A stretch of 44,766 nt of DNA from sequence record OZ035817.1; one strand, given 5' to 3'. A program made the translations under genes and the position numbers. How positions within the stretch are numbered: the first letter of the stretch is position 1; every line of letters starts with the position of its first letter. This DNA is from Vectrevirus DIJ06P1. Below are positions 14,920-40,306 of this stretch, in pieces. The notes beneath the pieces were generated by a model. It saw only the letters and a list, made by a program, of their open reading frames with translations. It ran no database searches and was not told the DNA's origin.

Positions 14920-14935
14920 GTCTCACACGTGAGAC
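14920..14935. repeat. palindrome GTCTCA-CACG-TGAGAC, copy a
   Basis: One of six copies of GTCTCA-N4-TGAGAC; abuts the promoter at 14938. Confidence 0.7.
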
Positions 14936-14937
14936 TT

Positions 14938-14960
14938 ATTTACCGGACACTATAGGATAA
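14938..14960 (+). promoter_or_regulatory. SP6-type phage RNAP promoter (first of tandem pair)
   Basis: ATTTACCGGACACTATAGGATAA. Confidence 0.7.
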
Positions 14961-15100
14961 CCGTCGGAGACGGAAAGAGAAGGGAAGATAAGGATATAAA
15001 GGAAGTAATAGGTATTAAAGGTTATATAGGTTTACCTAGGAATACCTATTACCTTCTTCCTTCCTCTTATTACTACTTAGAGGAAGGTCAGACCTAAGTT
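14956..15100. other. AT-rich region with purine tract and 11-bp inverted repeat between tandem promoters (putative primary origin or RNA processing site)
   Basis: TAATAGGTATT (15006-15016) and AATACCTATTA (15041-15051) inverted; purine run 14966-15010; placement mirrors the T7 origin downstream of gene 1. Confidence 0.4.
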
Positions 15101-15116
15101 GTCTCACATGTGAGAC
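15101..15116. repeat. palindrome GTCTCA-CATG-TGAGAC, copy b
   Basis: Perfect 16-bp palindrome just before the promoter at 15122. Confidence 0.7.
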
Positions 15117-15121
15117 TTCGT

Positions 15122-15143
15122 ATTTACCGGACAGTATAGATAA
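15122..15143 (+). promoter_or_regulatory. SP6-type phage RNAP promoter, variant (second of tandem pair)
   Basis: ATTTACCGGACAGTATAGATAA; CAGTATAG instead of CACTATAG. Confidence 0.5.
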
Positions 15144-15302
15144 GACTAACTTACTTTGGAGATTTAACCATGCGTAACTTTGAGAAGATGACCCGTAAAG
15201 CTAACCGTTTTGACATGGAAGAAGGGGCAGACGAAAGGCAAGAAGCTGAATAAACCTGTCCGTGACCGTGCATCTAAACGCGCAGCATGGGAGTTCTGAG
15301 TT

Positions 15303-15521
15303 ATGGCTAAATACAGAATCAAGACCTGTTTAAATAGTCACGGGCAAGAGTTCTACGTAGTGCAACGTAAAGTATTAGGCTTAATATGGGTCACTTGTAT
15401 GATGCCTATTGGCTATACTGATACAGAGGCTATCTTCTGCACCGAAAGGGATGCAAAGAAGTTTATCTCTAAGCGTAGAAAAGCTGACTCTTACCAACCT
15501 AGAATTATTAAGGTGAACTAA
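15303..15521 (+). CDS. hypothetical protein
   Basis: 72-aa ORF; stop overlaps the primase-helicase start. Confidence 0.45.
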   Translation: MAKYRIKTCLNSHGQEFYVVQRKVLGLIWVTCMMPIGYTDTEAIFCTERDAKKFISKRRKADSYQPRIIKVN

Positions 15522-17509
15522 TGGCTATTATTAATAACATCCCGTGCCCTGCCTGCCAGAAGAATGGGCACGATAAATCCGGCAATCATCTCATGATATT
15601 TGATGATGGTGCTGGCTATTGTAACCGTGGTCACTTCCATGATAATGGGAAGCCCTATTACCATAAGCCAGAGGGTGGTATCGAGATAACCGAATTGCCT
15701 ATTACTGGCAATATCAAATATACACCTTCTCAATTCAAAGAAATGGAGAAGGAAGGGAAGATAAGCGACCCTAAGCTACGCGCCATCGCTCTTGGTGGTA
15801 TGCGTATGAAAGACCGTTGGGAGGTCATGAATGAGCAAGAAAGGGCAGAGCAAGAAGCAGAGTGGAAACTTGATGTTGAATGGTTCCTCACGCTTAAGCG
15901 TAAGAACCTTGTTTCCAGACACATTCGCGGCGACATTTGCGCATTGTATGATGTACGTGTTGGGCACGATGAAGAGGGTAGAGTCTCACGGCATTACTAT
16001 CCACGCTTCGAAAAAGGTGAGCTAGTAGGCGCTAAGTGTCGTACCTTACCTAAAGATTTCAAGTTTGGACACTTAGGTAAACTCTTTGGTATGCAAGATC
16101 TTTTCGGTATGAATATTTTGTCTCACGTGTTAGACAAGGGAAGACGAAAGGATTGCTTGCTTATTGTGGGTGGGGAACTGGATGCACTAGCAGCGCAGCA
16201 GATGCTCCTTGATTCTGCCAAGGGTACTAAGTGGGAAGGTCAACCTTACCATGTATGGTCTGTTAACAAAGGGGAGTCTTGCCTTGAAGAGATTGTGCAG
16301 AACCGTGAACACATCGCCCAATTCAAGAAGATTATTTGGGGCTTCGATGGGGATGAGGTAGGGCAGAAGCAGAACCAGCAAGCGGCTCGCCTGTTCCCTG
16401 GCAAATCCTATATCCTTGAATATCCCTCTGGTTGCAAAGATGCTAACAAGGCATTGATGGCTGGCAAGGCTAAAGAATTTGTAGATGCATGGTTTAATGC
16501 CAAGTCATCTGATGAAGTCTTTGGTAGCCAGATTAAATCTATCGCATCTCAAAGGGATAAGCTCAAGGCTGCACGTCCAGAGCAAGGACTATCATGGCCT
16601 TGGCCTAAGCTGAACAAGGTAACGCTAGGTATTCGTAAGAACCAGCTTATCATTGTAGGTGCAGGGTCTGGTGTAGGTAAGACTGAGTTCCTTCGTGAAG
16701 TAGTTAAGCACCTCATTGAAGAACACGGTGAATCTGTAGGCATCATTTCTACAGAAGACCCGATGGTCAAGGTGTCCCGTGCTTTTATCGGCAAGTGGAT
16801 TGATAAGCGTATTGAGTTACCGCCAACCAACGACCCGAAAGAAGACGGATACCGTGAGGTGTTCGACTACACCGAGGAAGAAGCTAACGCCGCCATTGAT
16901 TATGTAGCTGATACAGGTAAGCTGTTTGTAGCTGACCTAGAGGGTGACTATTCGATGGAAAAGGTAGAGCAAACTTGCCTAGAGTTTGAGGCTATGGGCA
17001 TTTCTAATATCATCATTGATAACTTAACGGGGATTAAATTAGATGAGCGTGCTTTTGGTGGGAAGGTTGGTGCACTTGATGAATGCGTCAAGCGGATTGG
17101 TACTATCAAAGACCGACACCCGGTTACTATATTCCTTGTATCACACCTTACACGTCCTCCGGCAAACCGTACCCAACACGAAGAAGGTGGCGAAGTTATC
17201 CTTTCTGACTTCCGAGGCTCAGGAGCTATCGGATTCTGGGCATCTTACGCCTTGGGGATTGAGCGTAATACAAGAGCTGAAACGCTTGACGAAAGGACTA
17301 CCACGTACATCTCATGTGTCAAAGACCGCGACCAAGGTATCTACACTGGAACCAAGGTCATGCTTAAGGGTGACATTCAAACCGGACGTTTAATGGAACC
17401 ACAAGCCCGTACTAAGTCATTTGATACAGGTGAAGCAAGGCAACAAGAAGTACCAGATTTACCGGACACTATAGAAGAGACTAACTTCGATGAAGAAAGT
17501 GAGTTCTGA
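15521..17509 (+). CDS. DNA primase/helicase (T7 gp4-like)
   Basis: N-terminal Zn finger CPACQ...CNRGH; Walker A GAGSGVGKTEF; acidic C-terminal tail ending DEESEF. Confidence 0.9.
   Translation: MAIINNIPCPACQKNGHDKSGNHLMIFDDGAGYCNRGHFHDNGKPYYHKPEGGIEITELPITGNIKYTPSQFKEMEKEGKISDPKLRAIALGGMRMKDRWEVMNEQERAEQEAEWKLDVEWFLTLKRKNLVSRHIRGDICALYDVRVGHDEEGRVSRHYYPRFEKGELVGAKCRTLPKDFKFGHLGKLFGMQDLFGMNILSHVLDKGRRKDCLLIVGGELDALAAQQMLLDSAKGTKWEGQPYHVWSVNKGESCLEEIVQNREHIAQFKKIIWGFDGDEVGQKQNQQAARLFPGKSYILEYPSGCKDANKALMAGKAKEFVDAWFNAKSSDEVFGSQIKSIASQRDKLKAARPEQGLSWPWPKLNKVTLGIRKNQLIIVGAGSGVGKTEFLREVVKHLIEEHGESVGIISTEDPMVKVSRAFIGKWIDKRIELPPTNDPKEDGYREVFDYTEEEANAAIDYVADTGKLFVADLEGDYSMEKVEQTCLEFEAMGISNIIIDNLTGIKLDERAFGGKVGALDECVKRIGTIKDRHPVTIFLVSHLTRPPANRTQHEEGGEVILSDFRGSGAIGFWASYALGIERNTRAETLDERTTTYISCVKDRDQGIYTGTKVMLKGDIQTGRLMEPQARTKSFDTGEARQQEVPDLPDTIEETNFDEESEF
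17457..17480 (+). promoter_or_regulatory. SP6-type phage RNAP promoter inside the 3' end of the primase-helicase gene
   Basis: ATTTACCGGACACTATAGAAGAGA, full consensus match. Confidence 0.6.
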
Positions 17510-17530
17510 TTAGTGTATTTATCAGGGCTT

Positions 17531-17546
17531 GTCTCACATGTGAGAC
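17531..17546. repeat. palindrome GTCTCA-CATG-TGAGAC, copy c
   Basis: Flanks extend the stem (CTTGTCTCACATGTGAGACAGG); same extended sequence as copy f. Confidence 0.7.
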
Positions 17547-17585
17547 AGGCTCTTATTAAGTACATTAAATAACTGGAGATTGATT

Positions 17586-18269
17586 ATGTATAACTTAGTG
17601 TTGAATGTAGGTGACTTTGTACGCAACATCAAGAAAGATTCAAGTCGCTATCTTTGCCGTGGTGTTGTAACCTTTGTAGGTGAGAACCTGTATTATGTAG
17701 AATATCGCAGTGGTGTTAAGCAATATTACCACAAGAAGACAGCACATAAATATCTTGAAAAGATTGTAGAGATAAACAATCAATGTAAGTGCATACATGA
17801 TGAGGTTTGCGATAAATGTGCTCGCCAGATGCTTAAGAATTTCCTAGCTCCTCTTTATTATGGTGCTGGTCCTCAAACACTAGCAGAGTACATGGCAGAA
17901 AAGAAAACCACACTCAAGAAAGAGCGTCGCAATGTAATCACTGGTAAGACTCAAAGTGAGATGATTAAGCAATGTGGCACTGCATTAGGTGTTACACAGT
18001 TTAATACTCGTGCATTGGGTAAATCCACAGGACAAGCTATGGTAAAGATTGGAGAAGCCATGATGCATCCAAATGTACCTGTGCGAATCATGGATGTTGA
18101 CCATGCAATCACAGAACAAGGTACGCAACGACGTGTAATTAATAAGCATTTTGCCGACACTATAGAAGGTATTATTCGTAAGCAAGGGTTGAAAGGTCTT
18201 CACATCTTGAATGATGAAGAGTTACTGTACCTCCCTATTGTTACTGAAGAAACCTACGTGAATATCTAA
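17586..18269 (+). CDS. hypothetical protein
   Basis: ATG at 17586 after GGAGAT; 227 aa; AT-rich. Confidence 0.5.
   Translation: MYNLVLNVGDFVRNIKKDSSRYLCRGVVTFVGENLYYVEYRSGVKQYYHKKTAHKYLEKIVEINNQCKCIHDEVCDKCARQMLKNFLAPLYYGAGPQTLAEYMAEKKTTLKKERRNVITGKTQSEMIKQCGTALGVTQFNTRALGKSTGQAMVKIGEAMMHPNVPVRIMDVDHAITEQGTQRRVINKHFADTIEGIIRKQGLKGLHILNDEELLYLPIVTEETYVNI
18148..18170 (+). promoter_or_regulatory. weak phage-promoter-like sequence (intragenic)
   Basis: ATTTTGCCGACACTATAGAAGGT, 14 of 17 upstream positions match consensus. Confidence 0.3.
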
Positions 18270-18279
18270 GGAGTTAATC

Positions 18280-18498
18280 ATGACTAAAGTATTAATTTAT
18301 ATGCGTGGACCTCATAAATGCTATGCAGTTGTAGCACCAAATGGTGTTAAGCCTTATAGTACTTCAAAAGGATTGGCATTAATAGGTGCTAGTAGTAGTG
18401 CAAGTTTCCAAATGGAACTTTTTGGTCATTGGAATGAAAGGCAATTCCGTGAGGATTTTAAAGTCATTGGCAGCTTCATGGTGAAACATGCAGAATAA
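18280..18498 (+). CDS. hypothetical protein
   Basis: 72-aa ORF. Confidence 0.45.
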   Translation: MTKVLIYMRGPHKCYAVVAPNGVKPYSTSKGLALIGASSSASFQMELFGHWNERQFREDFKVIGSFMVKHAE

Positions 18499-18674
18499 AC
18501 ATAGTCTTAAAATGTTCGATGGTCATGAAGACCTGCAAGCCAAGATTACTAACCAAGCCTTCATGTTTGCACAGTTAACTATGGCTGAAGCAAAGAAGAA
18601 TAGCCTGACGCGTGAACAGGTTATCAAGGAAAGTGAAGTGAAACGTAAGATTCGCAGTCGATAAGTCAAGGGTT

Positions 18675-18690
18675 GTCTCACACGTGAGAC
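18675..18690. repeat. palindrome GTCTCA-CACG-TGAGAC, copy d
   Basis: Intergenic, upstream of the DNA polymerase gene. Confidence 0.7.
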
Positions 18691-18815
18691 AGCCTTTCAT
18701 CATATTGATTGGAGGTGCATTATGCCACGTGATTATGATTCTGATTGGGACTATTATGACTCAATGAATCCAAAACCCGAACGTTCAGATGATTACTACG
18801 AAACAGAGGCAATGT

Positions 18816-21362
18816 ATGAAGACTATTGATTGGAAGAAGGAGGCAGAAGGTCGTATCCTCGTGATGGATGCGGAAGCTAAAGGACTCCTTGACGCTATCC
18901 GATATAGACACCGTGAAGATGTGCATATCATTTGCTGCATGGATTTGCTTACTACCGAGGAGTTTCTCTTCTTTGACCCGTATGAGATGCGTGACCCTGA
19001 AGCAAGAGAACGCCTGAAGGAATGGGAAGGTCATCAAGATGGAACCTTGGTTGACGGTGTTAACTTCCTGAAGCACTGTGAGGCTATTGTGTCGCAGAAC
19101 TTCCTAGGGTATGACGGTCTTCTCTTTGAGAAAGCATTCCCTGATATTTGGAAAGGCTTTAACTATACCGAGAAGCGCGGTAAGGGCAGACTCCGTGCTG
19201 ACCTGTGTCCTATCCGTGTTGTAGATACGCTGGTGATGAGTCGTCTGCTAAACCCAGATAGACGCCTTCCTCCGCAAGCATATGCCAAAGGCATGGGTAA
19301 CGTCGCCCCTCACTCAATTGAGGCGCACGGCATCCGTATAGGCCGCTATAAACCAGAGAACGAGGACTGGTCTAAACTAACTGACCACATGGTTCACCGT
19401 GTACGTGAAGACGTGGCAATTGGTCGTGACCTTTTCCTATGGCTTTACAACGGAGAGTGGACGGAGCACAAACGCCGTGGCGTGAATAAACGTACTGGCC
19501 TAGGTATTGAGACAGCCTTCCACATGGAGTCCATTGTGGCGCTGGAGATGAGCCGTCAGGCCGAGCGCGGGTTCCGTCTGGACATCGACAAGGCTTTGGC
19601 CCGATGCGAAGAATTGGACGCTAAAATTGACGAGACAGTCGCAGCGTTCCGCCCTCACATGCCTATGCGTATCAAGTCTAAACCTTTTAAACCGGAAGAA
19701 AAGAATGAAGTATGCCAACGCGCAAATGAGTATGGAGTTAGCAACAATATACCTACTGTCCTTGACCCCTCACACTTTCTTCATGCCGAGAGACGAGGAG
19801 ATCGCAAGACAGTATGGAGTGTCACTACTAAGTCTGGTGATTGGTCGGCTAGTGTCAAGAAAGACTTCCCTCACCTTAGAGGAAACCGTAATGACACGCC
19901 AAGCATCAAGTGGATTGGCGCTTACTCGCCTGTTACTTTCGAAGAGATTCCCTTGGGTAACAGGGATACAGTTAAGCAAGTGCTCTATGATTATGGATGG
20001 AAAGGTGTTGAATTTAACGATACCGAGCAAGCTCATCTCGATGAACACGGAGTGTTACCCAAACCTTGGAGTGGTAAGATAAATGAAAAGTCCCTTACTT
20101 TATGGCAAGAAAGAGCCGCACGTGAAGGTAAAACAGTCCCTGATTGGTGCTTGGGTATCGCTGCATGGTACATACTCGTATCCCGTCGTGGTCAGATACT
20201 CAACCGTGGTGACGTTGAAGCCTTCAACGAGAAGGGAACGTGGCCCTCGCAGGCTGGTGTACGAAAGTGTCGCGGCCTTGTACCTGTAGCATTCAACAAG
20301 GAGCTAGGAATCAATGCGCAGCAATACTACGAGAGGTATGGATATTGGCCTACGTCTGACAAAGATGACGGGGAGTGGCGTGTTCCAGCTGTTGCTATTA
20401 GTATTGGCACTTCTACGTTCCGTATGCGTCATCGTAACGTGGTTAATATTCCTGCCCGTGGCTTGTATCCTTTACGTGATTTATTCATAGCAGGGAAAGG
20501 CAAGCTAATCCTTGGTTGTGACGGTGCAGGTCTTGAACTGCGTGTCCTGTCTCACTTCATGAATGACCCTGAGTACCAAGAGATTGTACTGCACGGTGAT
20601 ATTCATACGCATAACCAGATGAAGGCTGGTCTTCCTAAGCGTGATATGGCGAAGACGTTTATATACGCCTTCCTCTATGGCTCTGGTATAGCCAACCTTG
20701 CAGCAGTATGTGGTGTTACTGAGGCGGAAATGAAGGAAGTTGTGGCAAGATTCGAGATTGAACTGCCGTCTCTTGCACGTCTTCGTGAGAATGTTATCGC
20801 ACAAGGTAACAAGTTTGGCTACCTGCAAGCACCTGATGGGCATTGGGGTCGCATCCGCATGTCTGGTGGTGAACTTAAAGAGCACACGATGCTTAACGTA
20901 TTACTCCAGATGACTGGCTCTTTGTGTATGAAATATGCATTAGTAAAGGCATTTGCAGTAATGCGCAAGGAAGGTGTAGCCTTGGATGCTATGGGAAATC
21001 CTTGTGGTGTGGCTAACGTGCATGATGAAATCCAGATGGAAGTTCCTGAAGAGGAGGTCTTGTATCTTAACTACGACCTACCTTTCACCTTAGATGGGTT
21101 CGAAACAGAGAAGGCTGCCGTGAAAGCAGTGTTCGATGCAGAGGAGAAACGTGTTCATGTGGATTCTGAAGGACGTATGTGGTCTGCTGCAAACCTCGTC
21201 AGTGTTGATGCTGATGCTGGTGTATTGCATTGCCAGCGCCGTTATCACCGTGCAGGGCATATCATTGCCGACGCCATGATTTGGGCTGGTCAGTATCTGA
21301 AGATGCGTTGCCCGATGGCAGGAGAATATAAGATTGGCACAAGTTGGAAGGAAACACACTGA
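18816..21362 (+). CDS. DNA polymerase (T7 gp5-like, family A)
   Basis: ATG at 18816 after AGAGG (ORF-track start 18789 also possible); blocks GLELRVLSHF and KTFIYAFLYGSG match family A motifs A and B. Confidence 0.9.
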   Translation: MKTIDWKKEAEGRILVMDAEAKGLLDAIRYRHREDVHIICCMDLLTTEEFLFFDPYEMRDPEARERLKEWEGHQDGTLVDGVNFLKHCEAIVSQNFLGYDGLLFEKAFPDIWKGFNYTEKRGKGRLRADLCPIRVVDTLVMSRLLNPDRRLPPQAYAKGMGNVAPHSIEAHGIRIGRYKPENEDWSKLTDHMVHRVREDVAIGRDLFLWLYNGEWTEHKRRGVNKRTGLGIETAFHMESIVALEMSRQAERGFRLDIDKALARCEELDAKIDETVAAFRPHMPMRIKSKPFKPEEKNEVCQRANEYGVSNNIPTVLDPSHFLHAERRGDRKTVWSVTTKSGDWSASVKKDFPHLRGNRNDTPSIKWIGAYSPVTFEEIPLGNRDTVKQVLYDYGWKGVEFNDTEQAHLDEHGVLPKPWSGKINEKSLTLWQERAAREGKTVPDWCLGIAAWYILVSRRGQILNRGDVEAFNEKGTWPSQAGVRKCRGLVPVAFNKELGINAQQYYERYGYWPTSDKDDGEWRVPAVAISIGTSTFRMRHRNVVNIPARGLYPLRDLFIAGKGKLILGCDGAGLELRVLSHFMNDPEYQEIVLHGDIHTHNQMKAGLPKRDMAKTFIYAFLYGSGIANLAAVCGVTEAEMKEVVARFEIELPSLARLRENVIAQGNKFGYLQAPDGHWGRIRMSGGELKEHTMLNVLLQMTGSLCMKYALVKAFAVMRKEGVALDAMGNPCGVANVHDEIQMEVPEEEVLYLNYDLPFTLDGFETEKAAVKAVFDAEEKRVHVDSEGRMWSAANLVSVDADAGVLHCQRRYHRAGHIIADAMIWAGQYLKMRCPMAGEYKIGTSWKETH

Positions 21363-21478
21363 TGGATAGGCTTGACATTGTTTGCCTGTTCTTCACTTTC
21401 TTTCTTACACTCCTTATGCTTGCTTGTTATGGGAGTGTGAGACTAGATGTACCTGATGAAGAAGAGGGTTACGACTAA
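21362..21478 (+). CDS. tiny membrane peptide, 38 aa
   Basis: ATG overlaps the polymerase stop (TGATG); hydrophobic core; below the ORF-track cutoff. Confidence 0.25.
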   Translation: MDRLDIVCLFFTFFLTLLMLACYGSVRLDVPDEEEGYD

Positions 21479-21576
21479 TGCAAACTGCTTTTATTATTCT
21501 TGGTATCGTATTATTTATGGTAGTACTCTGGGCCTTCTCTGGCATTGACCCGGATTGTGATGGTAACTACGACTGA
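21478..21576 (+). CDS. tiny membrane peptide, 32 aa
   Basis: ATG overlaps the preceding stop (TAATG); hydrophobic core IILGIVLFMVVLWAF. Confidence 0.25.
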   Translation: MQTAFIILGIVLFMVVLWAFSGIDPDCDGNYD

Positions 21577-21633
21577 GTTATACTCAAGGTCACTTACGAG
21601 TGGCCTTTATGAATAACTTAACTGGAGAGTATT

Positions 21634-21894
21634 ATGATTAAATCACAGAAGTATTTCTCAACTAAAGATCGTAAGGTAGGTTTTGAAATCAAAGTTTGGG
21701 AAGACGGACACATTACTATTATTTACGAAGGTAAAGGTTCTAATGGTATGATGCTACGTAGATGCCGTACATTCACAAAGAAAGAATGTATGCATATGTC
21801 TGAATGCATGTTTCTTTACATCATTGCTGATGATATTAAAGGTATGAAGCTAATTGTATCTCTACCTTTAATACCTAAATCTTTGTTAGGTTGA
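21634..21894 (+). CDS. hypothetical protein
   Basis: 86-aa ORF, AT-rich. Confidence 0.45.
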   Translation: MIKSQKYFSTKDRKVGFEIKVWEDGHITIIYEGKGSNGMMLRRCRTFTKKECMHMSECMFLYIIADDIKGMKLIVSLPLIPKSLLG

Positions 21895-21918
21895 TTTACT
21901 GGACACTATAGAAGGAAA
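21894..21918 (+). promoter_or_regulatory. SP6-type phage RNAP promoter
   Basis: ATTTACTGGACACTATAGAAGGAAAG; followed by a TAGGT-repeat leader. Confidence 0.75.
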
Positions 21919-21980
21919 GCCTAGGTAATCTAGGTTTATAAGGTAGTATGGGTAATTAAGTAAATATAGGAGATATAAAT

Positions 21981-22358
21981 ATGTCAATGGTAACTACTCT
22001 GGTATTTGTAGCTCAATACTTTCGTGGTCTGGCTAATAAGTTCAAATCCAAGGCTATCAAAGCTATTGAGTCTCGCATCGAGGCAGTACAGGCAGAGCAA
22101 GTTAAAGTTGAAGAACATCGTAGTTCTCAAATGATTGACTGTCATAACCGCTACTATGCATCTCGTGATGAACTAAATGCACGTCAAGTCAAAGAGGTAG
22201 AAGATATGCTGGCACGTCACCAGCAAGAGCGTGACAGCCTGAAAGCTGAATTTGAAGAGAACAAGGCATCAATTGCTCTTGTAAATCAAGCTGCATCTGA
22301 CAGCCTGAAGAAAGAGATTGTTATGCTGGAAATAGAACTGGACAACTTGTCTAAATAA
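21981..22358 (+). CDS. hypothetical coiled-coil protein
   Basis: ATG after AGGAG; hydrophobic N-terminus then heptad-like charged region. Confidence 0.5.
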   Translation: MSMVTTLVFVAQYFRGLANKFKSKAIKAIESRIEAVQAEQVKVEEHRSSQMIDCHNRYYASRDELNARQVKEVEDMLARHQQERDSLKAEFEENKASIALVNQAASDSLKKEIVMLEIELDNLSK

Positions 22359-22364
22359 GGGGTT

Positions 22365-22664
22365 ATGATGGAAGAAGTGATTCAAGCTAAACATGTAGGT
22401 ATCATCTTTCGTGATCTAGAGCAGCGTAAAGTTGCAGGTCACACTCGTCTGGCTAAAGAATACGATACAGCAATCACTACTGTGGAACAAGCAGATGCCT
22501 ATCGTGGTCCAGAGTTTACTCAAGGTGAAACTTGTCATCAATTGAGCCTTTCACTTTGTGACACTATGGCTAGTGTAAATGTACAAGAGGTTGAAGATGG
22601 TGAATGTGTTAGTTATGTCTACCCTCTCGACACTATTGCACGTATTAAGGTAGTTCATAAGTAA
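22365..22664 (+). CDS. hypothetical protein
   Basis: 99-aa ORF. Confidence 0.5.
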   Translation: MMEEVIQAKHVGIIFRDLEQRKVAGHTRLAKEYDTAITTVEQADAYRGPEFTQGETCHQLSLSLCDTMASVNVQEVEDGECVSYVYPLDTIARIKVVHK

Positions 22665-22686
22665 TTACTGGACACTATAGAACAAT
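22664..22686 (+). promoter_or_regulatory. SP6-type phage RNAP promoter
   Basis: ATTACTGGACACTATAGAACAATAGG, overlapping the upstream stop codon. Confidence 0.7.
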
Positions 22687-22741
22687 AGGTCGGCTTAGTT
22701 CGGCCTATGATTGTGTAGTGTAACAATAGGAGACTAAATAA

Positions 22742-23548
22742 ATGGCACGTGGTGATTTTGATTTTGGTGCTCAGGTTACTAAAGCTGAAGGTAAAGTATT
22801 TAAGAACCCTGAAGTTGGTGATCATGAAGCAGTAATCTCTGGCATCATTCATGTTGGTTCCTTCCAAGATATCTTTAAGAAAGGTAATACCACTGAAGTT
22901 AAGAAGCCAGCAAACTTTGTTCTTGTTAAGATTATCCTGATGGGTGACGACGATAAGAATGAAGATGATTCTCGCATGGAACAATGGATGGCTGTGCCTC
23001 TGAAGTCTGGTGATAAGGCAACACTGACTAAGTTCCTGAATGCAGTTGACCCTAAAGAGTTGCTGGGTGGCTTCGATGATTTTATCGGTGAATGTCTGAC
23101 TGCAACTATGGTTGGCTCTGGCGACAAGAATGATGATGGTACTTTCAAGTATGTTAACTGGAAAGGCTTTGGCGGTATGCCTGATAAGTTGAAGAAGCTT
23201 GTACTGGCTCAGGTAGAAGAGGAAGGTCTGTCTATGACAGGTCATATCACCTTCGACAAGCTGACCAAAGAAATCCTTGATGACATCCCAGCTAACTTGG
23301 TACGTCAATACTTCCTGAACGAGACACCTCGTGGTAAGAACCTGTCTGTTGCTGGCTCTCACGTAGAAGCTATTATCAAAGCTGCTCGTGAAGAAGACCC
23401 TGAATGGAAGAAGGCTAAGAAGAAAGACGAGGAAGATGCTACCCCAGCTAATCGTAAATCTCTGGATACTGGTGAGTCTGTTCCACAGGAAGTACCTGAA
23501 GCAGAAGATACTCCTGCACCGGAGATGGATGAGGACGCGGAATATTAA
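22742..23548 (+). CDS. acidic protein, possible ssDNA-binding protein
   Basis: ATG after AGGAG; 268 aa; acidic C-terminal tail ending EMDEDAEY, like the T7 gp2.5 tail; fold not verifiable by eye. Confidence 0.35.
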   Translation: MARGDFDFGAQVTKAEGKVFKNPEVGDHEAVISGIIHVGSFQDIFKKGNTTEVKKPANFVLVKIILMGDDDKNEDDSRMEQWMAVPLKSGDKATLTKFLNAVDPKELLGGFDDFIGECLTATMVGSGDKNDDGTFKYVNWKGFGGMPDKLKKLVLAQVEEEGLSMTGHITFDKLTKEILDDIPANLVRQYFLNETPRGKNLSVAGSHVEAIIKAAREEDPEWKKAKKKDEEDATPANRKSLDTGESVPQEVPEAEDTPAPEMDEDAEY

Positions 23549-23557
23549 GGAGAAAGG

Positions 23558-23776
23558 ATGAAAGTACAAATCGTAACCCTGCACTGCAAGAAAGGAATTA
23601 CAACTCTTGGCGGCAACACTTTTCACTCCTTCTCTGAGGGGGGCACATATGCCGACCTGCACTACATCTGGCGCGACGGACAGCACGTGGTGAACTACAG
23701 CGACCCAGCTACGGGGAAACGCCACGGCGTATCGCTTCCGGCGCATGACATTGCTCAGGTGAACACAGTTTTATAA
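23558..23776 (+). CDS. hypothetical protein, GC-rich compositional outlier
   Basis: 72-aa ORF after AAGGAG; noticeably GC-richer with GCG/CGC/GGC codons unlike its neighbours. Confidence 0.45.
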   Translation: MKVQIVTLHCKKGITTLGGNTFHSFSEGGTYADLHYIWRDGQHVVNYSDPATGKRHGVSLPAHDIAQVNTVL

Positions 23777-23777
23777 A

Positions 23778-23793
23778 GTCTCACGTGTGAGAC
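23778..23793. repeat. palindrome GTCTCA-CGTG-TGAGAC, copy e
   Basis: Reverse-orientation version of copies a and d; 16 nt upstream of the promoter at 23809. Confidence 0.7.
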
Positions 23794-23808
23794 AAATCGG
23801 TGTCCGGT

Positions 23809-23832
23809 ATTTACTGGACACTATAGAAGAGA
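23809..23832 (+). promoter_or_regulatory. SP6-type phage RNAP promoter
   Basis: ATTTACTGGACACTATAGAAGAGAAG. Confidence 0.75.
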
Positions 23833-23881
23833 AGAATTTTAATCGGCGATAATGCCATAACCAACAAAAGGAGAATTTAAT

Positions 23882-24253
23882 ATGTTCAAGATTGAAACTA
23901 TCGTAAACCGTGTTGTTAAAGGTGCTGCTCTGGTATCCGTTGAGTCTTTCATTATCGTCGATGAAGCTGATCAACTGGTAGCTGGTACTAAGGCTTACGA
24001 TACCCGTGAAGAAGCTCAGGCTAAGATTGACAGCATGGGTAACTTCGCTGCTGGTCTGGAGTTCGCTCGTGCTTGCTTCCCTGAGCAGGCTGACAAAGCC
24101 CAGATCGGTAAGGCTAACATCGTAGCTGAATATCTGGATTGGATTGCTGCTGGTAAACCAGTGAAAGAAGTTAAAGCTGCTGAAGAAGCTGAAGCTCCGG
24201 CAGTAGAAGAAACCAAAGCAGAAGAAGTACTGTCTGCTGAAGAAGAATTTTAA
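23882..24253 (+). CDS. small acidic protein in a promoter-terminator cassette (function unknown)
   Basis: ATG after AAAGGAG; 123 aa; strongly biased codons; C-terminus ends SAEEEF; followed directly by a terminator. Confidence 0.6.
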   Translation: MFKIETIVNRVVKGAALVSVESFIIVDEADQLVAGTKAYDTREEAQAKIDSMGNFAAGLEFARACFPEQADKAQIGKANIVAEYLDWIAAGKPVKEVKAAEEAEAPAVEETKAEEVLSAEEEF

Positions 24254-24259
24254 TTGATG

Positions 24260-24293
24260 CCCTGTCTGCCTTAGTGTAGGCAGGGTCTTTTGC
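24260..24293 (+). terminator. intrinsic terminator
   Basis: CCCTGTCTGC - loop - GTAGGCAGGG followed by TCTTTTG; sequence-related to the terminator after the capsid gene. Confidence 0.6.
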
Positions 24294-24317
24294 GTAATAG
24301 TTATTGGAGAATGAATT

Positions 24318-24590
24318 ATGCCGACTATTGAATCTCGAATTACAATGGACATTAGCTACAATGCAATCACCAGACAATACATTGGGGTGGCCTATGATTA
24401 CAAAACTGGTGAGAAGCTAGTGGAGGTGAGACAATGGGATGACTATTGGTTAAGACAGAACCTCCATGATGCGGTGTCCTCCTTCTTGAAGGAGTGGCCT
24501 ACATGCGACCAAACTTCGACTTCGGAGCTACAGTATCGGAAGACAATAATCTCATCCTGTGGCCAACTGAAGGTAATAGAATCGCTTTAA
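24318..24590 (+). CDS. hypothetical protein (3' end overlaps exonuclease gene)
   Basis: ATG after GGAG; the last 88 nt overlap the exonuclease ORF in another frame. Confidence 0.3.
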   Translation: MPTIESRITMDISYNAITRQYIGVAYDYKTGEKLVEVRQWDDYWLRQNLHDAVSSFLKEWPTCDQTSTSELQYRKTIISSCGQLKVIESL

Positions 24591-27530: not shown

Positions 27531-27531
27531 T

Positions 27532-28836: not shown

Positions 28837-28840
28837 AGGA

Positions 28841-29427: not shown

Positions 29428-29436
29428 GGAGATAAC

Positions 29437-29646
29437 ATGGGTGTTGTAAAGAAAGCATTTAAGGCTATCGGTCTTGCTCAAGATGCACCACGTATTGAAG
29501 CCAAAGTCCCAGCACAGCAGCTTGAGCGTAAGCCTGAGACTGAAGCTGAAGATATTCAAATTGGTGCAGGTGGTGATGATGCGACTGCATCTGCAAAAGG
29601 TAAGCGCGGCCTTGTCCGTCCGGTAGCTTCTAGCTTGAAGGTGTAA
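29437..29646 (+). CDS. small basic/acidic virion-associated protein (gp6.7-like by position)
   Basis: 69-aa ORF immediately upstream of the portal gene. Confidence 0.4.
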   Translation: MGVVKKAFKAIGLAQDAPRIEAKVPAQQLERKPETEAEDIQIGAGGDDATASAKGKRGLVRPVASSLKV

Positions 29647-29647
29647 T

Positions 29648-32118: not shown

Positions 32119-32124
32119 TTCAGT

Positions 32125-32148
32125 ATTTACCGGACACTATAGAAGGGA
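32125..32148 (+). promoter_or_regulatory. SP6-type phage RNAP promoter driving the capsid gene
   Basis: ATTTACCGGACACTATAGAAGGGAG, 50 nt upstream of the capsid start. Confidence 0.8.
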
Positions 32149-32197
32149 GAAAAGTTCTCCCTAGTTATCAATTTGATTTATAAGGAGATTATAATAC

Positions 32198-33409: not shown

Positions 33410-33416
33410 TACCTAT

Positions 33417-33451
33417 GCCCTATCTACCTTGCGTAGGTAGGGTTCTTTTTG
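33417..33451 (+). terminator. intrinsic terminator after the capsid gene (T-phi analogue)
   Basis: CCCTATCTACC - loop - GTAGGTAGGG followed by TTCTTTTTG; 10-bp stem. Confidence 0.7.
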
Positions 33452-33463
33452 TTAGGAGGATTC

Positions 33464-36603: not shown

Positions 36604-37325
36604 TGGCTATAGGTTCTGCCGTTATGGCTGGTATGTCTTCTATTGGTAGTATGTTTACAGGCAGCGGTGCAGCAGCCGCTGCTGGAGGTGCTGCCGCAGG
36701 TGGCGGAGGCTTGCTAGGTTCTCTAGGTGGCTTCCTAAGCGGCTCTACTGCTGGCTTCTCTAATGCTGGGCTTCTTGGTGCTGGCCTTCAAGGTTTAGGC
36801 TTGATTGGTGATCTCTTTGGTGGAAGTGATGAAGCCAAGGCAATGAAGAAAGCACAAGAAGAACAGTGGCGGCAGCAACTTATTGCTACACAAGAAGCAT
36901 ACAAAACAGTAGCAGATGCAGAGCGTTCTGCTGCTAAACAATATCATGCAGATGCAATAAGCAATCAGGCTTCACTACTACAGCAGCGAGCACAGGTTGC
37001 ATTACTAGCAGGTGCTACTGGTACTGGTGGTAACTCTGTATCTTCTATGCTGAATGACTTAGCAGCAGAGGGCGGGAGGAACCAGAGTACAATTATTGAT
37101 AACTATGAGAATCAGAAGATTAACTTCACCAATCAGCTTAAGTCTATCCAGCGAGGTGGACAGATGCAGATGCGTGAGTTTAAGAAGCCTTCTGCCGTGA
37201 GCACCTTGGTGCAAGGTATACCGAGTCTGGCATCTGCCTATGTAACAGGTAGTAAGTCCGGCATGGCTTTAGGTAAAGCTTTAACTGATTCTCGTACATA
37301 TTCATCTGGAACAAGAGGTATTTAA
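36603..37325 (+). CDS. internal virion protein (Gly/Ala-rich)
   Basis: ATG overlaps the upstream stop; Gly/Ala-rich N-terminus then Gln-rich region. Confidence 0.65.
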   Translation: MAIGSAVMAGMSSIGSMFTGSGAAAAAGGAAAGGGGLLGSLGGFLSGSTAGFSNAGLLGAGLQGLGLIGDLFGGSDEAKAMKKAQEEQWRQQLIATQEAYKTVADAERSAAKQYHADAISNQASLLQQRAQVALLAGATGTGGNSVSSMLNDLAAEGGRNQSTIIDNYENQKINFTNQLKSIQRGGQMQMREFKKPSAVSTLVQGIPSLASAYVTGSKSGMALGKALTDSRTYSSGTRGI

Positions 37326-40273
37326 TGGCAATTGAGCGACAAGCAGTACAAGGTCTGCCACAAGTGCAGGCCACTTCTCCTAATGTCATGACCTTTGCAC
37401 CTCAGCGAGTTGGAGGTGTGGAGGCTGGCGTAGCTTCTACCTCCGGTAGTCGATTTATCGAAGACCTTATTCGAGCAGCCAGTAGTGTAGCTGATGTAAC
37501 CACTGGTATCCTTAATCAAAAGATTGAGGAAGATAAGGTTGTTCAAATGGAACGGGCATATAACGGATTAATGCCTTCTGAGGATGCAACTCGTGGTGGC
37601 GCTCGTGCTAACATGCTTGTCAAAGCTCAACTGCTAGCTAATGATGAAGCAGCACGAATGAAAGACATGGCTACTCGTTTCCAAGGGACGGATGACGAGT
37701 GGACACAACTTATGGTTGACTCTCGTAATGAGATGCAGAATAAGCTGTTCCAGCAATACCCTGAGTTGCAAGGTGACAAAGATACTATGCGTATGGTCAC
37801 TAATGTCTTCCAAGAACAGCAGCCTCAGATTTGGGCGACACGAACCCAGCATAAACTTGACCGTGAACAAGCAGACCGTGAGGATATCTTTGACGGGCGA
37901 GTGGCTTCTACTTGGGATTCTAATATTGACCCTGAAGCATCTGGCTATGCTTTACAGGAACGAATCCGCGAAGGTCTTACTCAAGGATTACTACCTGAAC
38001 AGATGCACAAGAAGTTAGTCCAGCGAGCAATTTCACTTGCACAAGGCGGTGATGTTAGCATGGCTGAAGCCCTGAAGTATGTGAAGGACGATAAGGGTGT
38101 TTCTGTTTATGCTAAGAATCCACAGCTTATCACAGCCATCACTAGTGGTAATGCAGTTTGGGCTAGGAATAATGTAGCTGATGTAACTCGTATGTCTTTC
38201 GAAGTTAAAGAATCCTACCTTGCAGGTGATTTAACTGATGAAGAATTGTTGGAACGAGCACAGCACATTAATAATCTGACAGGTAACTCTGTCTTCTCTA
38301 ATCCAGAGCTAGAGGCACTGATGCGCCAACGGGCTAAGCAGAATGCAGAGCTAGGTGCAATGCAGGATATGCGACGTGAGCTTTACTCCGACCGCCTGAC
38401 TGGCTTCCAAGGTAAGACTGATAAAGAGAAGAAGGCTTACATTGATGTTATCAAACAGGATAGCCAACTTTATGCAGACCAGCAAATCAAACAACGTGGC
38501 TTGGACCCTTACAGTCAAGAGGCTGAAGCTATTCGTGGTGCAGTGGAAGTGCAGCGCCTGCAATTCATGAACTCCAAAGGCTTAGTGGATGATACCTTTG
38601 AGTCTCGTATCAAAGCCATGGAATCTATGCTATCGCCTGAGCACTTTGCCAAGGGCGAACCACAGGAGTTGATGACTATTCGCCAGTTGTGGGAACAGTT
38701 GCCAGAAGAGAGCCGAGGTGTCTTTGGTGACACGGTGAATGGCTACATGGATAACTACAACACTGCACTACAAATGGGAGAGACACCTTTGCAGGCTGCA
38801 AGGTTTGCGCGTGAAGCACAGCAGAAATTCTCTCGTACTGAGAAGGAAACCAAGAAGTTCAACTCAGCTATTGGAGATGCACTGGATGAGGTATCTGGTG
38901 CTGGCTGGTTTGATGGTAAAACCGAAGTGTCAGACTTAGGTAAAGCTATTGCGGAAGAAGAGTTACGAGCTAAGGCCAATATGTTGTGGTCTAGTGGTAT
39001 GCGTAACATGGATTCTATCAAGAAGGCTTTAATTACTTGGGGCAATAAACGCTACACTCAAACAGAGGATGCAAAGACTTCCGGTGGCTATTTCATTAAA
39101 GGTGATTACACTTCTGCATCTGATATGCTTATGTCAGTTGGGAAAGGCGTAAACCCTACCGATGTACCTCTGGCGCTTGGTAGGTATGTAGAAACACAGA
39201 TGCCAGAATTGAAGAAGGAGCTTCAAGAGTGGGAAACTAAAGATGATATATACATTGATTACAATGAACAGAAAGGTACTTTCGTGATTCGTGCTGGTGC
39301 AGCAGGTCGCCCTCTTTCTGGAGTAATCCCTGTAACCTCTTTAGATACCACTTCACTACTAGATTCTGCCTATCAGAAGAAAGTAGAGGAACGAGATAAA
39401 GGCGAGTATGTTCACCCTTATCGTACAGATATTGGTGCACAAGAGCCTATGCCAGCTAAACCAACTGCCAAAGATATTGGTAAATTTGGACTAGCTAACT
39501 TCCTCATGTCTTCTGCTTTTGCTTCTGGTGAGAATCTGCCTTCTAACTTCGAGATTAACTATCGAGGTAATATGCAACAATTCTATGACAAGCTAGCTAT
39601 GGATGAGAATAAAGATAAAGTTGGCTTTAATAAGGCAACTGGAACCTTTACTCCATATAAAGATGCTCACGGTGAGTCTATCGGTTACGGTCATTTCTTA
39701 ACGGAAGAAGAGAAGCGAAACGGGTATATTAAGATTGGTGATGAACTAGTTCCCTATCGAGGGTCTATGTCTCAGCTTACAGAGAGCAAGGCTCGCGCTC
39801 TTATGGAGCAAGATGCCAAGAAGCATGTGCCTTCTACTCGTGACTGGAAGATTCCGTTTGACCAGATGCATCCTGCACAGCAACGTGGCTTGATGGATTT
39901 AACCTACAATTTAGGTAAAGGTGGAATCCAGAACTCACCGCGTGCTCTTGCTGCATTCAAAGCTGGTAAGCTTACGGAAGGCTTTATCGAAATGCTGGGC
40001 ACTGCATCAAGTGAAGGTAAGCGTATCCCTGGTCTACTGAAGCGACGCGCTGAGGCATACAATATGGCATCTGCTGGTGGTGTGCCTAAGATTACCGAAG
40101 TGGAGACTCGTGAAGATGGCTCCATGTGGGTTAGGTTTGGTGGACCTATGCCAGCAGGTTCTGTCTCGGCATGGACTCATAAACGTATTGGCGCGGATGG
40201 TTGGTATCAGGTTTATGAGGCTGCACCTACCAAGTTAGCTAAAGGTTCTAAGGTAGGTAAATTTAAGTTGTAG
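37325..40273 (+). CDS. internal virion protein with C-terminal lysozyme-like domain
   Basis: 982 aa; C-terminal segment DENKDKVGFNKATGTFTPYKDAHGESIGYGHFL parallels the T4 lysozyme catalytic region. Confidence 0.8.
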   Translation: MAIERQAVQGLPQVQATSPNVMTFAPQRVGGVEAGVASTSGSRFIEDLIRAASSVADVTTGILNQKIEEDKVVQMERAYNGLMPSEDATRGGARANMLVKAQLLANDEAARMKDMATRFQGTDDEWTQLMVDSRNEMQNKLFQQYPELQGDKDTMRMVTNVFQEQQPQIWATRTQHKLDREQADREDIFDGRVASTWDSNIDPEASGYALQERIREGLTQGLLPEQMHKKLVQRAISLAQGGDVSMAEALKYVKDDKGVSVYAKNPQLITAITSGNAVWARNNVADVTRMSFEVKESYLAGDLTDEELLERAQHINNLTGNSVFSNPELEALMRQRAKQNAELGAMQDMRRELYSDRLTGFQGKTDKEKKAYIDVIKQDSQLYADQQIKQRGLDPYSQEAEAIRGAVEVQRLQFMNSKGLVDDTFESRIKAMESMLSPEHFAKGEPQELMTIRQLWEQLPEESRGVFGDTVNGYMDNYNTALQMGETPLQAARFAREAQQKFSRTEKETKKFNSAIGDALDEVSGAGWFDGKTEVSDLGKAIAEEELRAKANMLWSSGMRNMDSIKKALITWGNKRYTQTEDAKTSGGYFIKGDYTSASDMLMSVGKGVNPTDVPLALGRYVETQMPELKKELQEWETKDDIYIDYNEQKGTFVIRAGAAGRPLSGVIPVTSLDTTSLLDSAYQKKVEERDKGEYVHPYRTDIGAQEPMPAKPTAKDIGKFGLANFLMSSAFASGENLPSNFEINYRGNMQQFYDKLAMDENKDKVGFNKATGTFTPYKDAHGESIGYGHFLTEEEKRNGYIKIGDELVPYRGSMSQLTESKARALMEQDAKKHVPSTRDWKIPFDQMHPAQQRGLMDLTYNLGKGGIQNSPRALAAFKAGKLTEGFIEMLGTASSEGKRIPGLLKRRAEAYNMASAGGVPKITEVETREDGSMWVRFGGPMPAGSVSAWTHKRIGADGWYQVYEAAPTKLAKGSKVGKFKL

Positions 40274-40290
40274 TATCTAACTCAAGGCTT

Positions 40291-40306
40291 GTCTCACATG
40301 TGAGAC
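40291..40306. repeat. palindrome GTCTCA-CATG-TGAGAC, copy f
   Basis: Extended context GGCTTGTCTCACATGTGAGACAGG identical to copy c. Confidence 0.7.

Follow-up and report, generated by a model that had tools for sequence, protein, structure and literature searches.

A palindrome that is repeated in the genome of a circularly permuted K1E/K1-5-like phage (Vectrevirus) may be a hairpin module common to SP6-like phages. Under the reading that we prefer, and to which we give an even chance, the module forms the tip of RNase III-type hairpins at three sites (c, d and f), stands bare in front of phage promoters at three others (a, b and e), and is read by a sequence-specific factor.

Palindrome copies and the hairpins around them

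In the window, i.e. the whole stretch of 44,766 nucleotides that was analysed, the pattern GTCTCANNNNTGAGAC has six exact matches, which start at 14920, 15101, 17531, 18675, 23778 and 40291 (copies a to f). None was found in 100 dinucleotide-preserving shuffles (0/100; chance expectation 0). The first-pass annotation, which had reported a six-copy repeat of GTCTCA-N4-TGAGAC at these positions, was correct in this respect, as it was for the centres (CATG three times, CACG twice and CGTG once), for the intergenic location (6/6 exact copies), and for the 24-nt context shared by c and f, which is the identical 24-mer GGCTTGTCTCACATGTGAGACAGG. Isolated half-sites are not enriched: GTCTCAC and GTGAGAC each occur two extra times, against 1.8 and 3.0 expected, respectively.

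The distance from the stop codon to the copy is 22 nt at c, 11 nt at d, 2 nt at e and 18 nt at f. Copy a lies 74 nt 3' of the RNAP stop, downstream of the early terminator at 14854-14877, and copy b is flanked by two promoters, in an origin-like interval without coding sequence. The gaps of 2, 5 and 15-16 nt between a, b and e and the next phage promoter agree with the 2-16 nt claimed earlier for three copies, and random placement never brought three of six copies this near to promoters in 100,000 trials. The general picture of a structured repeat tied to promoters and gene boundaries is borne out.

Table 1. Palindrome copies and associated hairpins in the window
Feature	Coordinates	Strand	Centre	dG (kcal/mol)	z	Remarks
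Degenerate left-end copy GTCTCACATGATAGAC	9412..9427	+				about 35 nt 5' of first host-type -35 box
Copy a, bare palindrome, 6-bp stem	14920..14935	+	CACG	-6.9	-0.8	phage promoter at 14938
Copy b, bare palindrome	15101..15116	+	CATG			5' of variant phage promoter 15122
Degenerate in-frame copy GTCTCACGTGTTAGAC	16120..16135	+				reads S-H-V-L-D; inside primase/helicase gene
Site c, RNase III-type hairpin	17510..17568	+	CATG	-31.2	-6.2	tip = palindrome 17531-17546; covariation
Site d, RNase III-type hairpin	18655..18711	+	CACG	-29.2	-5.3	tip = palindrome 18675-18690
T7-type RNase III hairpin without palindrome	21573..21620	+				TCAAGGTCAC-TTAC-GAGTGGCCTTTATGA; T7 R1.1 = TCAAGGTCATTCGCAAGAGTGGCCTTTATGA
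Copy e, bare palindrome	23778..23793	+	CGTG			5' of promoter 23809
Second hairpin at site e	23799..23822	+				GGTGTCCGGTA pairs with promoter -12 to -3 (TACTGGACAC)
Site f, RNase III-type hairpin	40268..40330	+	CATG	-23.8	-3.5	tip = palindrome 40291-40306

Taken together with their flanks, copies c, d and f fold into irregular hairpins about 23-25 bp long, which consist of a lower stem of 4-12 bp, a 2 x 3 internal loop and an upper stem of 13-14 bp. At site c, for example, the lower stem has 12 bp and the upper stem 13 bp. When 18 sequences of these hairpins from six genera are aligned, 96.7% of the cells are paired, compared with 32-43% when the partners are slid; compensatory double changes occur in 13 of the 24 pairs, and the covariation score is 0.50, against 0.05-0.13 in the slid controls. 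Cells with G.U far outnumber those with A.C (52 vs 2), which indicates that the mRNA-sense (+) strand is the folding strand.

The element had been described as a hairpin of 6-9 bp, too short for a typical RNase III site. The length holds for a, b and e (6 bp) and not for c, d and f, where the 13-bp upper stem is extended by the internal loop and the lower stem. Nor does the objection to RNase III hold at these three sites, in view of their folding energies (-24 to -31 kcal/mol, z -3.5 to -6.2) and their T7 R-site flanks. The hairpins at c, d and f span about two helical turns, with at least 11 bp between the predicted cleavage site and the loop, whereas a, b and e offer 6 bp only; the 11-bp minimum is that of PMC1540722. 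According to the same paper, an internal loop confines cleavage to one strand and leaves a protective 3' hairpin.

The flank consensus (C)UCAAGG ... CCUUUAUGA around an asymmetric internal loop is matched by f, the flanks of which read ACUCAAGG...UCUUUAUGAU as at T7 R sites, and is closely approached by c (UCAGGG...CUCUUAUUA) and d (UCAAGGG...CCUUUCAUCA). From the alignment with T7, cuts are predicted near 17556/17557 at c, near 18700/18701 at d and inside 40315-40319 at f, the one at c falling on the internal loop's 3' side. These positions are uncertain, because the conserved U.G/U-A step, a candidate distal box (UG in 12/18 sequences, columns 28/48; UA in 18/18, columns 29/47), is displaced by 2 bp towards the stem base relative to T7 R1.1. 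The hairpin at 21573..21620 is of the T7 type and has no palindrome, so that the RNase III signal can exist apart from the palindrome. By architecture and flanks, c, d and f are palindrome-capped T7-type RNase III processing signals, at which we infer cleavage; transcript-end or cleavage data for SP6-like phages were not found in the literature searched.

The bare hairpins are thermodynamically ordinary (6 bp, dG about -7 kcal/mol, z -0.8 to -1.3). Orthologues of copy a are present in 10 genomes, those of copy b in K1-5, SP6, Klebsiella HY and Erwinia/Pantoea phages, and those of copy e in nine genomes, and in all genera the bare copies are located 0-16 nt 5' of phage promoters. The bare and left-end copies accept mismatches both ways, as C.A in SP6, FBKp16 and KPN7 and as A.G or C.U in Vectrevirus variants, a tolerance that fits recognition of duplex-DNA half-sites better than a hairpin. 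For a, b and e we agree with the first-pass annotation that sequence alone cannot tell an RNA hairpin from a DNA operator. The second hairpin at site e has, together with the palindrome core, a dG of -22.2 kcal/mol (z -4.1), and in the cross-genome comparison its GGTGTCCGGTA-type complementary stretch follows each phage's own promoter sequence.

Conservation across phages and within genes

The palindrome is found at orthologous sites in Vectrevirus, Zindervirus, Klebsiella, Pectobacterium, Proteus and Erwinia/Pantoea phages and in Vibrio phiA318, a range that corresponds to the Molineuxvirinae and a Vibrio phage; the two subfamilies that carry it share proteins only 35-50% identical. It had been proposed that a lack of conservation in related phages would mark the element as incidental, and the comparison shows the opposite, since it is kept in every SP6-like genus examined.

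The stem versions GTCCAAC/GTTGGAC, GTCTAAC/GTTGGAC and GTCTCAC/GTGAGAC change in concert, with pairs 4/13 and 5/12 covarying via a U.G intermediate. The intermediate is seen in SP6, where the strand-asymmetric T/G combination is fixed in six of the nine copies, including bare b and e. Variation in the stem is confined to positions 4 and 5, and the centre is limited to R-(N)-Y, being self-complementary up to transitions in 76/76 copies. Most genera have a centre of 2 nt; in the phages of Proteus and Vibrio it has 3 nt, and Pm5460 contains copies of both kinds. The stem version is mostly uniform within a genome, the exceptions being site d of K1-5 and site c of the IMG/VR locus L020. In Erwinia phages, the RNase III hairpins at the d and f sites lack the palindrome, which occurs elsewhere in these genomes. 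No Rfam family matches at gathering score anywhere in the window, and no published description of the palindrome module was found in the literature searched.

Degenerate copies add to this pattern. The left-end position is occupied by a copy in all 10 genomes compared, and there GTCTCAC and GTCTAAC half-sites are combined without regard to pairing. In the in-frame copy at 16120, a completed right arm would bring a TGA stop into frame; among five genomes, one of the six third codon positions in the core is variable, compared with 35 of 40 in the flanks. Within the RNAP, primase and ligase genes, the in-frame copies are kept against synonymous drift, and N is exchanged for H when the stem version changes. 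Selection on the coding copies acts at synonymous sites and has also cost amino-acid changes.

Explanations of the module

Under the preferred reading, the module at c, d and f caps a long irregular hairpin of the mRNA-sense strand as its apical stem-loop. On the 3' side of the internal loop, host RNase III would make a single cut, which would leave the upstream message with a 3'-terminal hairpin as a shield against 3' exonucleases and free the downstream cistron. At a, b and e a weak 6-bp hairpin stands alone at the end of a transcription unit, directly 5' of the next phage promoter. Conservation beyond the need for pairing, concerted change of the arms, uniform centre length within genomes and selection on the coding copies together point to a sequence-specific factor, which is probably phage-encoded. 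Our best guess is that the tip of the RNA hairpin is what this putative factor reads, thereby marking or protecting the ends of transcripts and modulating processing or translation; for the bare copies a, b and e, it is almost equally likely that duplex DNA is recognised. The conserved proteins checked yielded no candidate for the binding protein, and no HTH, RHH or other DNA-binding domain was seen among them; a test linking stem version to protein residues gave nothing clear.

A more specific form of this reading, which we hold tentatively and as possible rather than probable, takes the palindrome as the site of a small SP6-like phage protein that would recognise, at 8-10 places in each genome, either the tip of the hairpin or the 16/17-mer as a duplex, and would coordinate the early/middle programme. 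If so, the factor and its sites would evolve together, in the way of the phage RNAP and its promoters. It might stabilise or shut off DNA-metabolism messages, gate the origin-like pair of promoters that follows the RNAP gene, or tune RNase III cleavage, and selection on its sites would be strong enough to set amino acids in RNAP, primase/helicase and ligase.

Alternatively, the palindrome may act as duplex DNA, as the operator to which a dimeric DNA-binding protein, probably encoded by the phage, would bind at 8-10 sites in each genome. Such a protein could be a repressor or roadblock at the promoters downstream of the RNAP gene and ahead of the exonuclease region, or one that organises the origin. 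The hairpin tip would then be the only spot where a palindrome can be accommodated without breaking the RNase III structure. This would account for the strict two-fold symmetry of the perfect 16-mers, which includes the unpaired C7/G10 and extends to a centre whose self-complementarity up to transitions has no obvious use in a loop, and for the location of bare copies next to promoters in all genera. The unpaired mixture of half-sites at the left end and the about equal frequencies of C.A and U.G in bare copies are also consistent with it, as are the lack of isolated half-site enrichment, expected of a dimer site, the retention of one perfect half-site where the in-frame TGA blocks the other, and the persistence of coding copies in spite of ribosomes that would melt a 6-bp RNA hairpin. 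Nevertheless, the operator appears somewhat unlikely, considering that the spacing of the half-sites differs by 1 bp in phages of Proteus and Vibrio, with two spacings in Pm5460, that the promoter distance varies over 0-16 nt instead of keeping a fixed register, that no DNA-binding domain, and no column clearly tracking the stem version, was found in the conserved proteins examined, and that the T/G combination of SP6 is asymmetric between strands even in bare copies.

Three further explanations were weighed. An evolutionary device without a dedicated reader, i.e. a short homology patch or mobile cassette homogenised by recombination or gene conversion, would mark module boundaries, and the copies do lie at gene and module boundaries; moreover, a mosaic junction between K1-5 and the window is located about 25 nt 3' of site d, where K1-5 has the other stem version within identical flanks, and the stem-loop with promoter at a, b and e resembles T4-type promoter/stem-loop cassettes. 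It is an improbable explanation against the conservation over two such divergent subfamilies and the selection on coding copies, and the restriction of variation to stem positions 4 and 5 and an R-Y centre points to functional constraint rather than hitch-hiking. Very improbable is the view, implied by some annotations of related phages, that the hairpins make the phage RNAP pause or serve it as intrinsic (class I) terminators. Site c is labelled a rho-independent terminator in the Pm5460 record, the UAB_Phi78 paper places terminators after genes without assigned function, and a simple scan (14500-24500) flags a and b as weakly terminator-like. These two calls, however, result only from the ATTTA tail of the promoter, which is missing at copy a of SP6; c and d were not called, and f, outside the scanned range, was judged by its tail sequence. 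The first-pass annotation had noted the lack of a consistent U-tract, correctly, and its suggestion of a phage-RNAP terminator class is unsupported for the same reason: no U-run is conserved after c, d and f, where the tail is CUUUAUGAU as in T7 RNase III sites. T7 R sites with this tail are known as processing sites, not as terminators. The genuine terminators of the window, at 14854 and 24259, differ in having a GC-rich stem followed by a T-run, and a terminator has no need of a conserved stem sequence. Finally, the self-complementary copies might pair with each other in RNA as 15-16-bp duplexes (e.g. a with b, 181 nt apart), which would serve as RNase III substrates or long-range clamps and explain the uniformity without a dedicated protein. 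Both the MFE and centroid folds of 14850-15135 pair a with b in place of two local hairpins (dG -87 kcal/mol, z -3.7), the R-Y centre keeps duplexes paired or wobble-paired in three of four combinations, and stem versions are uniform inside genomes. Yet we see only the slightest chance for this pairing, because local hairpins form earlier in transcription, many genomes have copy a without b, transcripts from promoter a lack copy a, ribosomes cover the coding copies, and site d of K1-5 and site c of L020 deviate in otherwise uniform genomes.

Comparison with known systems

REP/RAYT, CRISPR repeats/Cas6 and lambda boxB/N resemble the module in their short palindromic units with conserved stem sequence, in copies that are uniform within a genome, and in lineage-specific concerted change; unlike them, the module has no cognate protein found and matches no Rfam family in the window. 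The promoter-early stem-loop (PeSL) cassettes of T4-type phages were reportedly described by Arbiol, Comeau and Krisch in 2010. Both they and the module are short conserved stem-loops directly 5' of a phage promoter, situated at module boundaries, present in several copies along the genome and linked to mosaic junctions. PeSL stem-loops are thought to be terminators and recombination substrates in hyperplastic regions. The module, in contrast, is also present at RNase III hairpin tips and in essential genes and is conserved across subfamilies.

The pairing of the sequence upstream of the promoter at site e with the promoter specificity region recalls the promoter-embedded RNase III sites of T7 (R3.8, R6.5 and R13), in which the promoter sequence is one arm of the hairpin. 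In Erwinia phages the pairing at site e encloses the palindrome, whereas in this window the promoter hairpin and the palindrome are adjacent and un-nested, and copies a and b lack such pairing.

The T7 sites R0.3, R0.5, R1.1, R4.7 and R18.5 have flanks that are matched by f and d (ACUCAAGG...CUUUAUGAU), and the shared consensus ACUCAAGG...CCUUUAU^GAU is clearest at f. T7 R sites and c, d and f have in common a lower stem, an asymmetric 2 x 3 internal loop, an upper stem with a U.G/U-A step, a small loop, and an intercistronic location 5' of the next ribosome-binding site. The site at 21584, within the palindrome-free hairpin, is near-identical to a T7-type site. When the T7 R-site coordinates, which we take to be those of Dunn and Studier (1983), are folded, every site falls on the 3' side of an internal loop. 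The upper stem of the T7 sites has 9-11 bp, compared with 13-14 bp at c, d and f, where it is longer because the conserved 6-7-bp palindromic stem-loop is stacked on top.

Copies of the palindrome in the window and in related phages

The genome in the window belongs to a K1E/K1-5-like phage (Vectrevirus, Molineuxvirinae, SP6 group), is circularly permuted, and shares 93-97% identity with many Escherichia Vectrevirus phages. The permutation places the terminase and tailspike genes at 1-8471, and the left-end non-coding region with host-type promoters begins at about 8.6-9.5 kb. A search with GTCTCANNNNTGAGAC matches exactly six times, at the positions first reported for the palindrome GTCTCA-N4-TGAGAC (copies a to f), and gives 0 matches in 100 shuffles. 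The centres described for the six copies, the gaps of 2, 5 and 15-16 nt separating copies a, b and e from their promoters, and the identity of the 24-nt stretch shared by copies c and f were all reproduced. Two degenerate copies had been overlooked in the first-pass annotation (see table). Lone half-sites are not enriched in the window count.

Palindrome copies and associated features of the window
Feature	Position	Sequence or remark
Degenerate copy	9412	Directly upstream of the first host-type promoter
gp6-like protein	11262-12155	
RNAP gene	12219-14846	
Classical terminator	14854-14877	After the RNAP gene; likely the early terminator
Copy a	14920	Bare
Origin-like interval	14936-15125	Between the two atypical promoters
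Copy b	15101	Bare
Primase/helicase gene	15521-17509	
Degenerate copy	16120	Within the primase/helicase gene
Copy c	17531	Tip of a long hairpin
Copy d	18675	Tip of a long hairpin
T7-type RNase III hairpin without palindrome	21573-21620 (site at 21584-21612)	TCAAGGTCAC-TTAC-GAGTGGCCTTTATGA; nearly T7-identical
Copy e	23778	Bare; starts 2 nt past a stop codon
Second hairpin at copy e	23799-23822	Upstream GGTGTCCGGTA pairs with -12 to -3 of the promoter at 23809
Gene upstream of second terminator	23882-24253	
Classical terminator	24259-24286	Downstream of gene 23882-24253
Copy f	40291	Tip of a long hairpin

The exact element is absent from SP6, but GTC(T/C)AAC-RY-GTTGGAC is present at each orthologous site. 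The version GTCCAAC-RY-GTTGGAC (CA type) is found in the Klebsiella phages HY, FBKp16 and KPN7 and in Pectobacterium phage POP72, and the version of the window, GTCTCAC-RY-GTGAGAC (TC type), in Erwinia phage phiEa100 and Pantoea phage Nifs112. Proteus phage Pm5460 has GTCCAAC-RNY-GTTGGAC, Vibrio phage phiA318, of a different subfamily, has nine copies of GTCTCAC-RNY-GTGAGAC, Pectobacterium phage PP99 has GTCTAG-N4-CTAGAC, and the module is absent from T7. Positions G1-T2-C3, A6 and C7 are invariant, and stem pairs 4/13 and 5/12 covary, from C-G with A-U through U.G with A-U to U-A with C-G. The centre is R-Y in 76 of 76 copies, or R-N-Y in 14 of 15. In an IMG/VR scan with GTCCAACNNGTTGGAC, multi-copy matches came from SP6-like contigs only, and single matches elsewhere were at chance level; an automatic split of all fetched copies into extended and bare was left out, being contaminated by chance matches.

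Two further arrangements were seen. Beside its own module, PP99 carries four copies of GTACTAGT-NNG-CTAGTAC (161, 7939, 8017 and 16305), a repeat resembling the E. coli trp operator. In phiEa100 (7068-7118) and Nifs112 (6736-6786), a promoter-like ATTAACCACCCAGGAAG without the TATA unwinding element lies between two palindromes 35 nt apart.

Long hairpins and bare copies

Folded with 30 nt of flank per side, copies c, d and f adopt a common structure. A lower stem of 4-12 bp leads through an asymmetric 2x3 internal loop into an upper stem of 13 bp, formed by the core and 6-7 further bp. Folding gives -31.2, -29.2 and -23.8 kcal/mol, respectively (z of -6.2, -5.3 and -3.5 versus shuffles). RNAalifold on an alignment of 18 sequences from six genera returns the same structure as the single folds. 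Paired cells in this alignment amount to 96.7%, and shifting the 3' partners by 1-3 columns lowers this to 32-43%; changes on both sides occur in 13 of the 24 pairs (78 cells), and the covariation score is reached by no shuffle. There are 52 G.U cells versus 2 A.C cells, and therefore the mRNA-sense strand is the folding strand. A U.G/U-A step is kept at the core base in all three, 2 bp closer to the stem base than in the T7 site R1.1, so that the predicted cleavage positions (near 17556/17557 in c and 18700/18701 in d, and within 40315-40319 in f) are stated to the nearest few nucleotides only.

It is quite likely that c, d and f serve as T7-type signals for RNase III processing: the structure, the folding strand and the flank homology are seen in the computed data, and we infer cleavage. 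The earlier view, that RNase III would need a longer element, does not hold for these three copies, which form long T7-type hairpins. Flank comparison and a terminator scan of 14500-24500 make it unlikely that the hairpins are terminators, as had been suggested for phage RNAP, although the Pm5460 record annotates site c as a rho-independent terminator. Classical terminators, with a GC-rich hairpin and a T-run, were found at two places in the window (see table).

The flanks of copies a, b and e are without complementarity, and their folds (about -7 kcal/mol, z of -0.8 to -1.3) are no better than shuffles. Copy a lies downstream of the likely early terminator, and a and b each lie upstream of one of two atypical promoters. 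The interval between these promoters contains a conserved hairpin, CCGTCGGAGACGG, followed by a purine-rich run able to pair with a pyrimidine-rich run, and its position matches that of the T7 primary replication origin. At copy e a second hairpin follows, and the complement of the GGTGTCCGGTA type changes with each phage's own promoter (SP6, HY, POP72, Pm5460 and phiA318).

Selection on the module and its possible reader

The copies inside genes are under selection at the nucleotide level. At the primase/helicase site in five genomes, third codon positions differ at 1 of 6 in the core versus 35 of 40 in the flanks, and the peptide tracks the stem version, being S-N-V-L-D with GTCCAAC and S-H-V-L-D with GTCTCAC. 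The right arm in the window is GTTAGAC, because GTGAGAC would create an in-frame TGA. The RNAP gene has an orthologous copy, from which POP72 encodes SNVLD and the Erwinia and Pantoea phages encode SHVLD; phiA318 retains a 17-nt version in another frame, encoding VSRCET, and the window has lost the motif and retained the peptide ANVLD.

Module and RNase III hairpin do not depend on one another. The Erwinia phages have RNase III-type hairpins with ordinary tips at the equivalents of d and f, and their palindromes instead adjoin promoters, adjoin a ribosome-binding site, or sit inside genes, while phiA318 has palindrome tips on RNase III-type hairpins. The RNase III-type hairpins here bear a family-specific, separately selected palindromic module.

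The stem version and the centre length are nearly uniform among the copies of one genome. This uniformity, together with the lineage-specific switching, points to a sequence-specific reader, that is, a factor recognising the module, or to homogenisation among copies. Site d of K1-5 (at 9570) and site c of an IMG/VR contig (at 3222) have the GTCCAAC/GTTGGAC version, with flanks that match those of GTCTCAC-type relatives exactly, and could be relics or recombination imports; each is the single odd-version copy in its genome and stands beside a mosaic junction. Arms of the GTCTCAC and GTCTAAC kinds are combined in the left-end copy, with pairing not preserved. Bare copies of SP6, FBKp16 and KPN7 include C.A combinations, which c, d and f never show.

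Two readings of the module are close in plausibility. Reading by a protein of the module as the tip of an RNA hairpin would account for the fixation of the U.G intermediate in SP6, for the differing centre lengths and for the module's place as a hairpin cap. An operator in duplex DNA, bound by a dimer, would suit the strict two-fold symmetry, centre included, the adjacency to promoters, the persistence in translated regions, and the tolerance of bare copies for unpaired half-site combinations. The self-complementary copies could also pair with each other into duplexes of RNase III size, and the minimum-free-energy fold of 14850-15135 does pair copy a with copy b.

As for the reader, one stem version is common to E. 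coli and Erwinia phages and the other to Salmonella, Klebsiella and Pectobacterium phages; since the version does not follow the host genus, a host factor is no explanation. Neither Pfam nor PHROG hinted at nucleic-acid binding in the 20 proteins searched, which were conserved or small. Among 21 shared proteins, 21 residue columns match the TC/CA split versus 4-15 in control partitions, which is not significant; the best protein, the gp6-like one, has 3 columns versus 0-1 in controls, and its homologue search returned only relatives of at least 90% identity.

Several known sites were rejected. T7 primase recognises GTC and SP6 primase GCA, and GCA is absent from the motif. The right arm resembles promoter cores of the GGACAC type, as a decoy for the phage RNAP might, yet the stem version does not follow the promoter specificity region, and the palindrome is common to the Erwinia and K1E phages but the promoter is not. 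The host sites of IHF, DeoR, parS, matS, SlmA, CRP and MetJ, in their usual forms, do not seem to fit both stem versions, and the restriction site GTCTC (BsmAI-type) is in one version only.

Relation to T7 and to RNase III processing

RNase III sites of T7-group phages are textbook knowledge. The T7 sites were folded at the RNase III coordinates attributed to Dunn and Studier, and each of these lies in a hairpin shaped like c, d and f, on the 3' side of its internal loop. Typical E. coli RNase III substrates comprise two helical turns; an internal loop limits cleavage to one strand, leaving a protective 3' hairpin, with a minimum of 11 bp between loop and cleavage site and UA/UG as the canonical distal box (Pertzev and Nicholson, PMC1540722).

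The deposited K1E, K1-5 and SP6 records contain CDS features only, and no Rfam family matches the window. Six literal versions of the motif gave no literature match, and searches pairing RNase III, hairpins or terminators with the SP6-like phages gave nothing relevant. The palindrome is unmentioned in the searchable open literature, although the original SP6 and K1-5 genome papers (Dobbins 2004; Scholl 2004) may mention it earlier.

The separable module is the more interesting part, its 16-nt sequence being constant from coliphages to Vibrio phages. Concerted change within genomes and imposition on coding sequence usually signal an unrecognised protein-nucleic acid recognition system. A reader, if found, would mean a further level of regulation in phages whose control has been ascribed to RNAP, promoters and terminators only, and could give engineers a hairpin and protein that form a compact, orthogonal pair. 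Although SP6, K1E and K1-5 serve as models and in therapy, and SP6 RNAP is in standard laboratory use, the map of RNA processing in these phages carries essentially no annotation. Taken as T7-type RNase III signals, c, d, f and the site at 21584 would provide testable transcript boundaries and carry a classic mechanism of T7 over to the 'estranged' branch of SP6.

The likeness to T7 extends to the sequences themselves. The T7 flanks are ACUCAAGG...CCUUUAU^GAU and those of site f are ACUCAAGG...UCUUUAUGAU, while the flanks of d and c are close variants of the T7 sequence. The promoter hairpin at copy e is similar to those RNase III sites of T7 that are embedded in promoters. T7 R1.1 is TCAAGGTCATTCGCAAGAGTGGCCTTTATGA, and the palindrome-free hairpin in the window is almost the same; SP6 also has a palindrome-free R1.1-like hairpin, at 12234.
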